A stretch of 29,924 nt of DNA from a virus (Duplodnaviria > Heunggongvirae > Uroviricota > Caudoviricetes): the IMG/VR virus record IMGVR_UViG_2541047891_000002; one strand, given 5' to 3'. Positions 6,966 to 10,753 of the stretch are shown piece by piece (positions within the stretch are counted from its first letter, which is position 1; the number at the start of each line of letters is the position of its first letter). The position numbers and the translations under genes are program-made. Below the pieces are notes generated by a model, which was given only the letters and a program-made list of their open reading frames with translations, did not search any database and had not been told where the DNA came from.

Positions 6966-7526
6966 ATGCCTGAGTTTTCCCCTGCATTCCTTCATTCGCT
7001 GAATTTTGTTATACGGCCTGATGTTGAAGGTGGTTACGTTAATGATCCCACTGACCGTGGCGGCGAAACCAAATACGGCATTTCTGACCGTCGCGACGGC
7101 GTTATTGATGGCAAAACCGATGTTAACGGTGACGGGAAGCCTGATACCCGTATTAAAGATTTAACCCACGAGCAGGCGGCGCAAATCTACTGGCGTGATT
7201 ACTGGCTGGCGGCAAAGTGTAACGAATGGCCTGATGGTGTTTCCTTATTCGTCTTTGATGCTGCCGTTCAGCACGGTGTTAAACGCGCAATTCAAATCCT
7301 CCAGGCGGCAGCAGGTGTTGATGATGATGGCATCGTCGGCAAAAACACCCGCGCAGCCGTTCTGCGTGCCGACACTGACTGGCTGCTGTTGCAGTGTTTC
7401 CTGCGTCGTTCCCGCTATTACGCAGGGATTATCAAATCCAGTGCCTCGCAGGGGAAATATCTGAACGGCTGGTTTAACCGCCTGGATCTGCTCGCCAGCG
7501 TCTGCCGGGAGGTTCTGCATGGGTAA
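6966..7526 (+). CDS. GH108-family muramidase with C-terminal peptidoglycan-binding domain
   Basis: Track ORF 6933-7526; start ATG 6966 with AGGAGG 5 nt upstream; N-terminal EGGYVNDPTDRGGETKYGI motif typical of glycoside hydrolase family 108; C-terminal DGIVGKNTRAAV resembles PG_binding_3. Confidence 0.75.
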   Translation: MPEFSPAFLHSLNFVIRPDVEGGYVNDPTDRGGETKYGISDRRDGVIDGKTDVNGDGKPDTRIKDLTHEQAAQIYWRDYWLAAKCNEWPDGVSLFVFDAAVQHGVKRAIQILQAAAGVDDDGIVGKNTRAAVLRADTDWLLLQCFLRRSRYYAGIIKSSASQGKYLNGWFNRLDLLASVCREVLHG

Positions 7527-7737: not shown

Positions 7738-8110
7738 GCGTTTCTGTTATTTGTTACCAAATTGTCTGCCGGTCATGTTGCTGGCGCTGATTCTGATTAT
7801 CAGCGTGTTTTATGGTTTGCGGGCGGTGCTGTTCTGGAATGCTGCCGTTTTCAGTGTGGCGCTGTGCTTTACCGGCACTATTTTTGATGATCTGTCCCGG
7901 ACAGGAAAAATCCGACGTTATGCTTCTATTAATGCCATTGATTTTCTTGGTGGCCTCGTCGGGTTAAGTCTTTCGGCTATTGCAACCGGGCTTTTAGAAG
8001 AAGTGCATCAGTTCACGATTTATGCTTTATCTGGCTTCTGTAGCATATGGTTTTGCTTTCGCCTCCATATCTGTCTGCGACGTTCAGTACCGTCTGGCGC
8101 GGAGGCATGA
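7730..8110 (+). CDS. Multi-pass membrane protein (126 aa), holin-like candidate
   Basis: At least three hydrophobic helices (VMLLALILIISVFYGL, AAVFSVALCFTGTIF, FLGGLVGLSLSAIATGLL); start overlaps previous stop. Confidence 0.5.
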   Translation: MFKRFCYLLPNCLPVMLLALILIISVFYGLRAVLFWNAAVFSVALCFTGTIFDDLSRTGKIRRYASINAIDFLGGLVGLSLSAIATGLLEEVHQFTIYALSGFCSIWFCFRLHICLRRSVPSGAEA

Positions 8111-8232
8111 TGTACAGAAGATTCAGTAATGAATGTTCCGGCATGGCTACGTTGCTGATGGTGATGAAGGGTATCACAGTTATTGCACTGCTTGCCGTAG
8201 TCACGGGGATCTGTCTGTTAGTTTTTCGCTGA
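8107..8232 (+). CDS. Small single-pass membrane protein (~41 aa)
   Basis: Track ORF 8047-8232; ATG 8107/8110 next to GGAGG; one hydrophobic helix ITVIALLAVVTGICLLVF. Confidence 0.35.
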   Translation: MMYRRFSNECSGMATLLMVMKGITVIALLAVVTGICLLVFR

Positions 8233-8242
8233 TGGGGGCAAA

Positions 8243-8653
8243 ATGACAAATCAGCAGGATTTATTTGAACATGATCCGGCTGTAAGCCAGTTAATGGATC
8301 ATATCGACAATATACCGGCTCCTGAGCAGGAGGCCCGCTGGCCCCGCGCGCTGGTTGAGCTGGTTGACGTTCTGGAAACAGAACTGAAACGTCAGGGCGT
8401 GGATGATGCACGGAGCATAGCCCGTAAACAGGTGATGTCCTTATCATGGTTCCTGGGGGGACGGCAGTATTACATCCCCCGGGGTGATGCACTTCTGGCA
8501 GCGTTGCGGGATGATCTGATTTACTGCCAGTTTAACGGTCGGAACATAGAGGAGCTGCGGCGTGAACATCGTCTGTCACAACCGCAGATTTACAAGATTA
8601 TTGCCCGGCAGAGAAAACTTCATTCACGGCGACATCAGCCCGATTTATTCTGA
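8243..8653 (+). CDS. C: C, activator of late transcription (Mor/C family)
   Basis: 136 aa; C-terminal block YYIPRGDALLAALRDDLIYCQFNGRNIEELRREHRLSQPQIYKIIARQRK paralogous to Mor; directly upstream of lys as in Mu. Confidence 0.85.
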   Translation: MTNQQDLFEHDPAVSQLMDHIDNIPAPEQEARWPRALVELVDVLETELKRQGVDDARSIARKQVMSLSWFLGGRQYYIPRGDALLAALRDDLIYCQFNGRNIEELRREHRLSQPQIYKIIARQRKLHSRRHQPDLF

Positions 8654-8686
8654 GTAACAGCAATCAATCGGTGCAGGCCGGTTGTG

Positions 8687-8755
8687 TTAATTAATAATAA
8701 CCCCGCCTGCAAATTCCCCTGAGTTACCCTCCTTTTATTACCGAAGGAGGGTTTC
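8687..8755 (+). promoter_or_regulatory. Candidate C-dependent late promoter region for lys
   Basis: 12-mer ATAACCCCGCCT at 8697-8708 is repeated exactly at 15903-15914 upstream of I; both followed within ~10-15 bp by TCCCC; also a near-dyad TTAATTAATAATAA at 8687-8700. Confidence 0.4.
8726..8752 (+). promoter_or_regulatory. Hairpin sequestering the lys ribosome-binding site
   Basis: ACCCTCCTT (8726-8734) pairs with AAGGAGGGT (8744-8752) around a 9-nt loop; the right arm contains the AGGAGG Shine-Dalgarno 5 nt before the lys ATG. Confidence 0.45.
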
Positions 8756-9184
8756 ATGAACGATTTTAAAAAACGTCTCCCCCGCATCATCAGAACACTT
8801 GCCATCGTGGTACTGGCGGCATGTGGTGGCTGGCAGTTGTCCGGCGATGGTGATTCATCGCTGGTTTCTGTTCAGTACCTTCCATACACAGACCAGCACG
8901 GCGAACTGACAGTTTGCCTTAACCATCACGGTCCTGATATTCAGCAACGCCCTTACAGCTATGGTGAATGCATCATGCTGTTGAAAGCAGATTTGAAGCC
9001 TGTTTATGACACGTTAAATACCCATCTGAACAGGCCACTGACAGAGGAACAAAAAAATGCACTGGCGGTGTTTATGTTCAGCGCCGGTTCTGGTGCTGTG
9101 CCCGCTCCCCGTAATAATCAGCTGCTGAATGATGATGTGTTACCGGTGCCGGGATTAATGCCGGGTATGTCGTCAGGGCTGTAA
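8756..9184 (+). CDS. lys: Lysozyme-fold endolysin homologue with SAR-type N-terminus, possibly degenerate
   Basis: 142 aa; N-terminus MNDFKKRLPRIIRTLAIVVLAACGGWQL (two Lys then a weakly hydrophobic Gly/Ala-rich segment); core YLPYTDQHGELTVCLNHHG aligns to the Y.PY.D.....T.C.GH block of SAR lysozymes; see findings for missing Glu. Confidence 0.7.
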   Translation: MNDFKKRLPRIIRTLAIVVLAACGGWQLSGDGDSSLVSVQYLPYTDQHGELTVCLNHHGPDIQQRPYSYGECIMLLKADLKPVYDTLNTHLNRPLTEEQKNALAVFMFSAGSGAVPAPRNNQLLNDDVLPVPGLMPGMSSGL

Positions 9185-9196
9185 ACAGGAGAGCGT

Positions 9197-9496
9197 GTGG
9201 ATATTTATTCAGTGCTGACCTACTCGATAGGCAGTGGCAGCACCATTGGTGGCATTTTGTGGTGGGCGGTGAGGCGTACATTTGCCAGCACGGAACGTGT
9301 GGAGCAAATCGAAAGCCGTTTAACCGCGCTTGAAACGAAGTGCGAAAACATGCCCAGTGCACAGGATTTACATGCTGTCCGGTTACAGACCGCAGAAACC
9401 AATGGTGAAGTGAAAGCGATGAACCGGCACATACAGGTGCTGACCCATCAACTGGAGCTTTTGCTCGAAAAGGCGCTCGGAGAGAACAACAAATGA
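9197..9496 (+). CDS. Membrane-anchored coiled-coil protein (i-spanin-like or releasin-like)
   Basis: GTG start 9197 with CAGGAGAG upstream; N-terminal hydrophobic helix SIGSGSTIGGILWWAV followed by a helical/coiled-coil region (EQIESRLTALETKCE ... HQLELLLEKAL). Confidence 0.5.
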   Translation: MDIYSVLTYSIGSGSTIGGILWWAVRRTFASTERVEQIESRLTALETKCENMPSAQDLHAVRLQTAETNGEVKAMNRHIQVLTHQLELLLEKALGENNK

Positions 9497-9783
9497 TTGA
9501 CGACATTCTGACGCAGGATCGCCGCCTGGTCATCCTGCGTTCACTGATGGACTGCAATAACGAGGCTAACGAATCCATTTTGCAGGATTGCCTGGATGCT
9601 TACGGGCATAACGTTTCACGTGATGTGGTTCGTGGTCAGATTGACTGGCTGGCAGAACAGCAGCTTGTCACCGTGGAAAACCTGCGCGGCTTTTATGTCG
9701 TGACACTGACCTCCCGTGGTCAGGATGTGGCTGAAGGCCGGGCTCGTGTTTCCGGTGTCAAACGTCCACGTCCCCGCTTCTGA
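9493..9783 (+). CDS. Conserved Mu-like late protein, soluble (96 aa)
   Basis: ATGA overlap with upstream gene; no hydrophobic segment; sits between the lysis genes and the D-like gene. Confidence 0.55.
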   Translation: MIDDILTQDRRLVILRSLMDCNNEANESILQDCLDAYGHNVSRDVVRGQIDWLAEQQLVTVENLRGFYVVTLTSRGQDVAEGRARVSGVKRPRPRF

Positions 9784-10383: not shown

Positions 10384-10578
10384 ATGGCTGTTGAAACCAA
10401 AGAAAAAACGTCTGCGGAAATTGCCCTGAAACTCAAACCCATCGTCGAAGCGGCGCTGGCTGAGGAGGGCAATATTCATATCGTCACAAAAGCCGAATCA
10501 CTGTATCTGTTAATGCAGATTGTGGTTGGCCCGCGTATCGCGGGCCAGATCATCAGAGAGTCACAAATTAATCAGTAA
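10384..10578 (+). CDS. Hypothetical small protein (65 aa)
   Basis: ATG 10384 preceded by AGGAG (10371-10375) at 8-nt spacing; lies inside track ORF 10162-10578, whose upstream part overlaps the D-like gene. Confidence 0.4.
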   Translation: MAVETKEKTSAEIALKLKPIVEAALAEEGNIHIVTKAESLYLLMQIVVGPRIAGQIIRESQINQ

Positions 10579-10753
10579 TCATTGCCTCCAACAACTGATA
10601 AATATGTTTTAACAACTCCCGTTCTGACTTCACATTTTGATCAGAACCGGCAAGACACGCTGGCTGTTTATTCGTATTCATGCCAGCGATAACAAAGTCA
10701 CTTGCTATTTTTGCAATCTCAATTTTTTGGTCAATGGTCAGCTTTTCTTTCAT
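10568..10753 (-). CDS. Hypothetical small protein (61 aa) on the reverse strand between D and E
   Basis: Reverse-strand ORF with AAGAGG upstream of its ATG and a TATAAAT-like element ~35 nt upstream; AT-rich against GC-rich flanks; 3' end overlaps 10384-10578 by 11 bp. Confidence 0.4.
   Translation of the reverse strand: MKEKLTIDQKIEIAKIASDFVIAGMNTNKQPACLAGSDQNVKSERELLKHIYQLLEAMITD

Follow-up and report, generated by a model that had tools for sequence, protein, structure and literature searches.

The lys-like gene and its product

The DNA examined here, IMG/VR record IMGVR_UViG_2541047891_000002 (Duplodnaviria; Heunggongvirae; Uroviricota; Caudoviricetes), is a single stretch of 29,924 nucleotides, called the window in its full length, which comprises most of a Mu-like prophage. 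The gene under study follows the gene of the late transcription activator C and encodes a homolog of gp22 (Lys), the signal-anchor-release (SAR) endolysin of phage Mu; it is referred to below as the Lys-like gene and its product as the Lys-like protein. Three of 5426 complete E. coli genomes, those of TUM9757, PEC422, and SE11, have chromosomal prophages that match positions 8243-9600 at 99.3-99.7% identity; the one in TUM9757 lies within yeaE and, at ~36 kb, represents a complete Mu-like genome. A reading made from the DNA alone, without database searches (the sequence-only reading), had described a product of 142 aa with Lys at positions 5 and 6, the core motif YLPYTDQHGELTVC (aa 41-54), Asp46, and Thr52, all of which proved correct on checking the open reading frame (ORF) (Table 1).

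Judged from its sequence, the ORF is a genuine gene and no chance occurrence. An AAGGAGG ribosome-binding site lies 5 nt before its ATG, and the product is 40.5% identical to Mu gp22 over aa 4-114 (tblastn). It also matches the Pfam profile PF00959 (GH24 phage lysozyme, T4-lysozyme fold; E=7e-11), with 43 bits against a curated cut-off of 22.3, so that the profile score places it in GH24, although the match is restricted to profile positions 7-93 of 125. By descent, as these comparisons indicate, the protein is a member of the GH24/PF00959 superfamily and of the Mu gp22 lineage. RefSeq and nr name such proteins "glycoside hydrolase family protein" or "endolysin", the former being the RefSeq name in the 99.7%-identical DNA copy of E. 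coli TUM9757 (WP_000997677.1); the protein has neither an NCBIfam assignment nor a match among the defense systems of PADLOC.

Table 1. Positions in the window of the Lys-like gene, its segments, its expression signals, and neighboring genes.
Feature	Position	Strand	Details
Lys-like ORF	8756..9184	+	142 aa plus stop (ATG at 8756, stop at 9182-9184); homolog of the Mu SAR endolysin gp22, by alignment catalytically degenerate and C-terminally truncated
N-terminal segment, aa 1-23	8756..8824	+	basic n-region K5 K6 R7 R10 R13; 9-residue hydrophobic stretch T14-A22; lipobox L20-A21-A22-C23
Linker, aa 29-40	8840..8875	+	variable, Gly/Ser/Asp/Pro-rich; contains codon 37 (8864-8866, gtt, V37); stands in for the N-terminal helix bearing the catalytic Glu in active enzymes
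Retained lysozyme-fold core, aa 41-113	8876..9094	+	beta-hairpin with D46 (8891-8893, gac), family-specific E50 (8903-8905), and T52 (8909-8911, aca); helices 69-90 (long) and 97-109
Tail, aa 114-142	9095..9181	+	Pro/Gly-rich, without detectable homology, predicted disordered (predicted local distance difference test, pLDDT, 31-40); hhalign negative (C-terminal lobe, gp24)
Putative C-dependent late promoter	8696..8730	+	AATAACCCCGCC at 8696-8707; -10-like TACCCT at 8725-8730
Inverted repeat	8727..8751	+	CCCTCCTT (8727-8734) and AAGGAGGG (8744-8751); can pair the ribosome-binding site (Shine-Dalgarno AAGGAGG, 8744-8750)
GH108 + PG_binding_3 muramidase	6966..7526	+	186 aa, without signal or transmembrane segment; PF05838 E=3.5e-24, PF09374 E=7.8e-14
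gp20-like	8110..8232	+	40 aa, single transmembrane segment; also in Salmonella lineage L004
C-type late transcription activator (Mor family)	8243..8653	+	75% identical to Mu C
gp25-like (DUF2730), releasin homolog	9197..9496	+	42% identical to Mu gp25; PF10805 E=2.9e-16

Replacement of the catalytic glutamate

In the Mu gp22 record (AAF01099), E37, D46, and T52 are annotated as catalytic. The Glu that serves as general acid is E11 in T4 lysozyme, E35 in phage 21 R, and E37 in Mu. The Lys-like protein shares D46 and T52 with Mu gp22, together with C54, H57, and C72, and carries V37 at the place of E37 (MAFFT); in an independent HMMER alignment of the family profile, which also included DLP12 RrrD (4zpu), the same position lies under E35 of phage 21 R (3hde/3hdf), which therefore faces a non-acidic residue here. 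A search of 5.8 billion proteins yielded proteins of this kind in five clusters at 90% identity (P0001-P0005), which form with the window protein a family of short Lys proteins of 138-142 aa, 63-99% identical (MAFFT), from E. coli and Salmonella enterica subsp. diarizonae. The six sequences were aligned with 74 full-length relatives (80 sequences), among which Glu37 and Asp46 are each present in 74/74 and Thr52 in 73/74. Across the six family members, residue 37 is V/A/A/A/D/D. The placing of Val37 at the catalytic position by the sequence-only reading, done by eye, is thus borne out by both alignments and by the relatives, and the comparison with Mu Lys and phage 21 R that it had proposed as a check puts no Glu there.

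The window protein differs from the 99%-identical P0001 at only two positions, one of them being V37A. It keeps D46 and T52, while the family as a whole shows losses at both (D46G in P0005, T52A in P0004), and the entire canonical triad (E-8x-D-5x-T) is thus free to vary among the short proteins. Since the E37A variant of Mu gp22 is experimentally inactive (Chamblee et al., PMC9239132) and Ala37 occurs naturally in P0001 and in the 88%-identical P0002, the Lys-like protein is very probably inactive as a lysozyme; that it is not a canonical muramidase can be held with good confidence.

Loss of the C-terminal lobe

The similarity of the Lys-like protein to any lysozyme ends at about aa 114-118. 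Beyond this point Mu gp22 continues for 56 residues, whereas the Lys-like protein has 27 unrelated, Pro/Gly-rich ones, and the loss in the C-terminal lobe (C-lobe) is accordingly estimated from the alignments at ~55 residues. The sequence-only reading had recognized the truncation and had put it at about 20 residues, which is too few. In the T4-lysozyme fold, the C-lobe forms one wall of the substrate cleft and accounts for half of it. By hhalign the tail shows no similarity to the C-lobe of full-length enzymes, and tblastn with the C-terminus of Mu Lys (aa 116-171) found no match in any frame of the whole window.

Three explanations of the short frame were considered and set aside. A frameshift or sequencing artefact hiding the C-lobe disagrees with the negative three-frame translation of 9040-9300, with the negative tblastn search of the window, and with the retention of the short frame in five lineages. 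An origin of the tail from the C-terminus of gp24 (a lys'-'gp24 fusion) or from a collapsed C-lobe finds no hhalign similarity. As for a recent deletion derivative of Mu lys, identity is only ~40%, DNA alignment is uninformative, and gp25 is equally divergent (42%), against 97-99% for gp26 and gp27.

The structure prediction that had likewise been proposed as a check returned a partial lysozyme fold. In the AlphaFold model, obtained with 80 sequences (an earlier run with 6 sequences had a mean pLDDT of 54, i.e., low confidence), residues 38-111 form a confident core (pLDDT 73-90 for aa 41-113), and the linker and tail are predicted to be disordered, with pLDDT <50 at residues 19-37. Foldseek matched the core to phage 21 R (3hde/3hdf) and RrrD (4zpu) over 76-84 aligned columns with a root-mean-square deviation of 2.4-3.7, and the TM-score normalized to the target (0.40-0.52) corresponds to about half of the R21/RrrD enzyme. 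HMMER detected the same two proteins with E=5e-11 over aa 31-118; they are the best matches both in structure and in sequence among PDB entries. The muramidase domain of SpmX of Caulobacterales (6h9d), ~25% identical, was also among the fold and sequence matches and belongs to a cellular protein of unrelated context. By these comparisons the Lys-like protein lacks both the catalytic Glu and a full C-lobe, features that define an active member, and it should therefore not be filed as an endolysin.

An atypical N-terminus

The N-terminus occupies the position of the Mu SAR domain, and the sequence-only reading had called it SAR-like, a description that has to be qualified. SAR domains are uncharged transmembrane segments of weak hydrophobicity, rich in Gly, Ala, and Ser. 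The six-Gly stretch has been stressed as a feature of the gp22 SAR domain (Chamblee et al., PMC9239132). The segment of the Lys-like protein has two Gly against six in Mu gp22, contains R13 in its interior, and is more hydrophobic than Mu-type SAR domains (best 15-residue Kyte-Doolittle hydropathy 1.93-2.09 in the family vs 1.35-1.55 in the closest ones). With the Gly-rich stretch lost, R13 present, hydrophobicity raised, and an LAAC lipobox with its invariant Cys at the end, the segment is, as judged from sequence, probably not a typical SAR domain, and the Lys-like protein is probably not a classical SAR protein.

Residues 1-23 read as an export signal, a membrane anchor, or a possible lipoprotein signal. 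C23, G24, G25, W26, Q27, and L28 are invariant across the six family sequences, and Cys is found within the first 30 residues of 0/74 full-length relatives. A canonical lipobox in the DOLOP sense ([LVI][ASTVI][GAS]C, preceded by basic n- and hydrophobic h-regions) is present in 5/6 family sequences; P0002 has LAVC. Because of R13, the uncharged run ahead of Cys23 is only 9 residues long (T14-A22), whereas PROSITE PS00013 requires >=10, and this pattern does not match. We regard lipidation of Cys23 as slightly favored, and with Gly at +2 the lipoprotein would then be sorted to the outer membrane; alternatively, the segment may be an uncleaved anchor or a signal peptide that is cleaved off. Whether lipidated, cleaved, or anchored, the protein is predicted to have its domain in the periplasm.

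The basic tip has been retained despite these changes: residues 5-7 are KKR, or RQR in one lineage, and KK at 5-6 resembles K6/K7 of Mu gp22, which make its release dependent on gp25, the releasin (Chamblee et al., PMC9239132). As a separate observation, the cytoplasmic N-terminal tip of a Mu-type SAR endolysin of Erwinia tracheiphila (L018, 2575-3219) is expanded by tandem (PKS)n repeats, MPKIPKSPKSPKSPKSPKSPKSPKSLKASLL, which multiply Lys in the segment where Mu K6/K7 control releasin dependence.

Selection on an isolated family

Nei-Gojobori ratios of non-synonymous to synonymous substitution (dN/dS), calculated on codon alignments of five lineages, are 0.15-0.24 for the whole Lys-like gene at dS 0.46-1.66. 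The core (aa 41-115) is the most constrained, with dN/dS 0.03-0.17 (Fisher p = 5e-14 to 4e-8, synonymous vs non-synonymous changes), whereas the tail, at 0.34-0.68, is indistinguishable from neutral (Fisher p = 0.27-0.43). The linker has the highest dN in the protein, 0.28-0.82 in all pairs except window-L008 (0.03) and L005-L004 (0.19). Neighboring genes have dN/dS of 0.04-0.13 (gp25-like), 0.02-0.10 (C), and 0.04-0.12 (GH108).

Among the positions conserved to >=90% in active relatives, eight are replaced in the short family, and four of these have become newly invariant (V50E, G56N, N109S, F115V), besides the gain of Cys23. Position 50 is Glu in 6/6 family members and V, I, K, or N in the 74 active relatives, none of which has Glu there; G56 and N109 are invariant in all 74. 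Taken at the level of sequence, this residue pattern shows a functional shift and not mere relaxation. Mu-type lys copies that have decayed look different, being frameshifted or fused (P0006, P0007, P0119) or split, as in Kluyvera genomosp. 3 (L015, 2739-3266), where a Mu-type lys broken into three ORFs represents real decay in contrast to the intact short family.

It is highly probable that the Lys-like gene is functional. The sequence-only reading had suggested an inactive or regulatory remnant; inactivity is very probable, given the inactive Mu E37A variant, but a decaying remnant is contradicted by the purifying selection, the kept length, and the new invariant residues.

The family also appears isolated. 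A profile search of 1.84 billion representatives returned a single family representative at E <1e-30, the next match (2e-22) being an ordinary Mu-type Lys, and the further matches were Glu-bearing Mu-type lysozymes or frameshifted fragments. No intermediates were found through the gp25 neighbor, as the gp25-based loci from GTDB species representatives carry full-length, Glu-bearing lysozymes and spanins, and scans of IMG/VR and JGI metagenomes gave only 99%-identical copies and no intermediates. A literature search, within the library that it covered, found no paper on a pseudo-endolysin of this kind.

Gene neighborhood

The gene order is Mor, GH108+PG_binding_3, gp18, a four-transmembrane gp19-like gene, gp20-like, C, Lys-like, DUF2730/gp25-like, gp26, gp27, and large terminase. 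We compared the window with seven loci (L004-L010) from four other lineages; all eight are Mu-like prophages in which Mor is followed at once by a 186-aa GH108+PG_binding_3 gene, and the Lys-like gene by a DUF2730 gene. Two lineages lack the gp19-like gene, and the gp20-like ORF was called in L005, L006, L008, L009, and L010 and found by translation in L004. Identity to Mu is 38% for gp19, 50% for gp20, 75% for C, 40.5% for Lys, and 42% for gp25, and 85-99% for gp18, gp26, and gp27, which marks the gp19-gp25 block as the divergent part of the region relative to Mu. It would thus seem that the Lys-like and gp25-like genes were inherited together, as an alternative module.

The Lys-like gene has the genome position of lys in Mu: it comes first after C, a putative Plys-like promoter precedes it, and gp25-gp27 lie downstream. 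Mu lacks a holin, its spanin consists of gp23 and gp23.1, and gp23.1 is a Pro-rich lipoprotein (Chamblee et al., PMC9239132). In Mu, lys is followed by gp23 (inner-membrane spanin, i-spanin), gp23.1 (outer-membrane spanin, o-spanin), and gp24 before gp25, and all three are absent here, a point that the sequence-only reading had passed over: tblastn found no counterparts in the window, and none were found in the loci of the four other lineages. Scanning the window for lipoboxes brought up no credible spanin substitute, and no plausible i-spanin ORF was seen. One ORF inside the GH108 gene in another frame (7276-7464, +) has LTGC as in the Mu o-spanin, but no h-region precedes the motif, and it was judged a chance match.

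The gp25-like gene starts 13 nt past the stop of the Lys-like gene, leaving a gap of 12 nt (9185-9196). Its product has the arrangement of a transmembrane domain followed by RR known from Mu gp25 and is predicted N-out/C-in, the topology assigned to Mu gp25, which has almost no periplasmic part (Chamblee et al., PMC9239132). The locus shows both marks of a Mu-type endolysin-releasin pair, a DUF2730 gene just downstream and a basic N-terminal tip.

Mu has nothing between Mor and gp18; here the GH108 gene is inserted at this place, as the first gene behind Mor in the middle operon. Its product scores weakly against the NCBIfam model "holin-associated N-acetylmuramidase" (69.5 bits, cut-off 240). 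The gene is intact and under purifying selection in all five lineages, which supports the proposal of the sequence-only reading that GH108 is the working muramidase; we likewise presume that it is the likely wall-degrading enzyme. The same GH108 gene (~93% DNA identity) is found in the middle operon of the Yersinia phages vB_YpM_5 and vB_YpM_6 (Muvirus, MT374853/4), whose lysis cassette is nevertheless normal: it retains gp23, gp24, a gp25 of the Mu type, and a Mu-type Lys of the full 171 aa with its Glu. GH108 and an active Lys can therefore coexist, and the presence of GH108 alone does not entail the loss of Lys function.

Expression signals

The motif AATAACCCCGCC of the putative promoter resembles Mu Plys CCATAATCCCGC, which lies inside the annotated C-dependent late promoter of Mu at the homologous place, and its distance to the -10-like TACCCT, 18 nt, equals that to TAGACT in Mu. 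All five lineages have CCATAATCCCGCC or AATAACCCCGCC upstream, the -10 spacing, and an AAGGAGG(G) ribosome-binding site. Because the C-site-like motif and the -10 spacing are conserved and the ribosome-binding site is strong, we infer that the Lys-like gene is set up for late, strong expression like Mu lys. RNA folding of 8700-8775 gave -16.7 kcal/mol (z = -2.5), and the left arm of the inverted repeat, which differs among lineages mostly by G-U-compatible changes, shares bases with the putative -10 (TACCCT). Late transcription would thus begin within or downstream of this arm, whereas read-through from the middle operon would hold the whole hairpin, and the hairpin could in this way restrict translation of the Lys-like gene to late mRNA.

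Proposed role and alternative explanations

Taking these findings together, we favor with moderate confidence a pseudo-endolysin derived from a Mu-type SAR lysozyme, which is exported, tethered to the envelope, non-hydrolytic, and kept for a non-catalytic role late in infection or in lysis. The Lys-like protein would be made late in infection, exported by its basic/hydrophobic N-terminal signal, and held at the membrane, most likely through lipidated Cys23 with sorting to the outer membrane, or else by an uncleaved anchor. The lysozyme-fold remnant of ~70 residues would then be displayed in the periplasm on a flexible linker, where it would bind peptidoglycan or a partner protein non-catalytically and assist or regulate lysis jointly with the gp25-like protein, and the intact GH108 protein would hydrolyze the wall.

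Precedents exist in cellular systems. In SpmX, a phage GH24 lysozyme domain has been co-opted for non-lytic polar localization, with the complete fold and the catalytic Glu kept. NlpD and EnvC of E. coli are degenerate LytM proteins that have lost their catalytic residues, are tethered to the envelope (NlpD as an outer-membrane lipoprotein), and regulate another wall hydrolase. Activation of another hydrolase in the manner of NlpD may serve as a model for the Lys-like protein by analogy only, since the NlpD/EnvC fold (M23) is unrelated and their function lies in host division.

Several points weigh against a pseudo-endolysin with a part in lysis. The lipoprotein call is borderline, given R13 with its 9 uncharged residues before Cys23 and Val at -1 in P0002, and the family is small (5 clusters at 90% identity, 3/5426 complete E. 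coli genomes). We infer the non-catalytic binding, the partner, and any lysis role from sequence. The family-invariant E50, absent from active relatives, may mark a re-wired active site, and a role serving the host instead of lysis is possible, should the prophages prove not to be inducible. Finally, GH108 would have to gain access to the wall, and the outer membrane would have to be opened, although GH108 has no export signal and no holin is recognizable. A bolder scheme, which we regard as doubtful, is that this clade lyses without a recognizable holin, SAR endolysin, or spanin: a new mechanism would deliver the cytoplasmic GH108 to the wall and open the envelope, with the exapted, lipid-anchored dead lysozyme and the gp25-like protein, perhaps joined by the 40-aa gp20, gating the process or disrupting the membrane.

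The absence of spanin genes raises the alternative that the Lys-like protein is not a regulator but an outer-membrane lipoprotein that replaces gp23/gp23.1 and has taken over outer-membrane disruption or envelope bridging. All five lineages have gained the invariant Cys of the lipobox and at the same time lack gp23, gp23.1, and gp24, the gene sits at the place of the Mu spanin genes, no other credible lipobox ORF exists in the window, and the tail is Pro-rich as in o-spanins. We nevertheless consider this unlikely: there is no candidate i-spanin partner (the gp25-like protein is arranged like Mu gp25, with almost no periplasmic part), the protein lacks the C-terminal transmembrane segment needed by a unimolecular spanin, the tail evolves almost neutrally, and the protein is itself no more than a putative lipoprotein.

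Quite unlikely is a protein that still cleaves peptidoglycan, as a minimal muramidase or transglycosylase in which a relocated acid (Glu50, or Asp37 in two lineages) replaces Glu37. The position of E50, two residues before T52 on the active-site hairpin, together with its invariance in the family (6/6) and its absence from active relatives (0/74), would suit such an enzyme; so would D46 and T52, which the window protein keeps, and a core that is under strong purifying selection. Yet D46 and T52 are each lost in one lineage, G56 and N109 (74/74 in active relatives) are replaced, ~55 C-lobe residues are missing, and the segment expected to bear the acid is a variable, disordered linker.

We find it improbable that the protein is an envelope protein of the "moron" type, serving the lysogen or excluding phages by shielding peptidoglycan or blocking the incoming wall-degrading step. 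Its tethered periplasmic architecture resembles that of some prophage exclusion lipoproteins, and the family is known from prophages only and from no isolated phages; against this, the gene has a conserved Mu-type C-dependent late-promoter motif and no obvious constitutive promoter, is syntenic with lys and co-inherited with gp25, and gave no PADLOC match. A non-functional leftover, kept only by its location between the late promoter and essential downstream genes (translational coupling, mRNA stability), is very improbable, since the lost catalytic residue and C-lobe, the nearly neutral tail, and the presence of position 37 among the two differences to 99%-identical P0001 stand against strong amino-acid-level purifying selection in the core and N-terminus at synonymous saturation, a length of 138-142 aa kept down to 63% identity, new invariant residues, and the frameshifted or split state of genuinely decayed copies.

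The database names "endolysin" and "glycoside hydrolase" are very probably wrong functionally and could mislead endolysin mining. As a pseudo-endolysin, the gene would be a rare and clean example from nature of how a phage's enzyme for lysis became a pseudo-enzyme kept by selection, beside a releasin (DUF2730), in Mu-like phages without spanins. DUF2730 proteins also accompany non-SAR endolysins, and Chamblee et al. (PMC9239132) ask for their role there; the module provides a tractable E. coli system for the question of DUF2730 without a SAR endolysin (PMC9239132) and also lets one ask how a signal-less GH108 gets to the wall without a recognizable holin.

Additional genes of the region

Between gp27 and the large terminase, a junction at which the gap in Mu measures only a few bases, the window has two small convergent ORFs (10384-10578, +; 10568-10753, -) of 64 and 61 aa, which are hypothetical in RefSeq and had no NCBIfam or PADLOC match; the pair may be a moron insertion. 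In two lineages (L005, 7330-7848; L010, 1729-2262; L007, 3-308), an inserted pair of divergent genes separates C from the late promoter of the Lys-like gene, with a product of 108-113 aa on the minus strand and a membrane-like one of 63 aa on the plus strand; L006 has a degraded version. Several Mu-like prophages from other Enterobacterales encode, just upstream of C (the gp18-gp20 position), a secreted and conserved protein of 119-153 aa with a signal peptide and the motif DPASGFWTCNGI.LHMGV (L013, 1752-2144; L014, 1685-2146; L016, 1719-2156; L017, 1749-2108).

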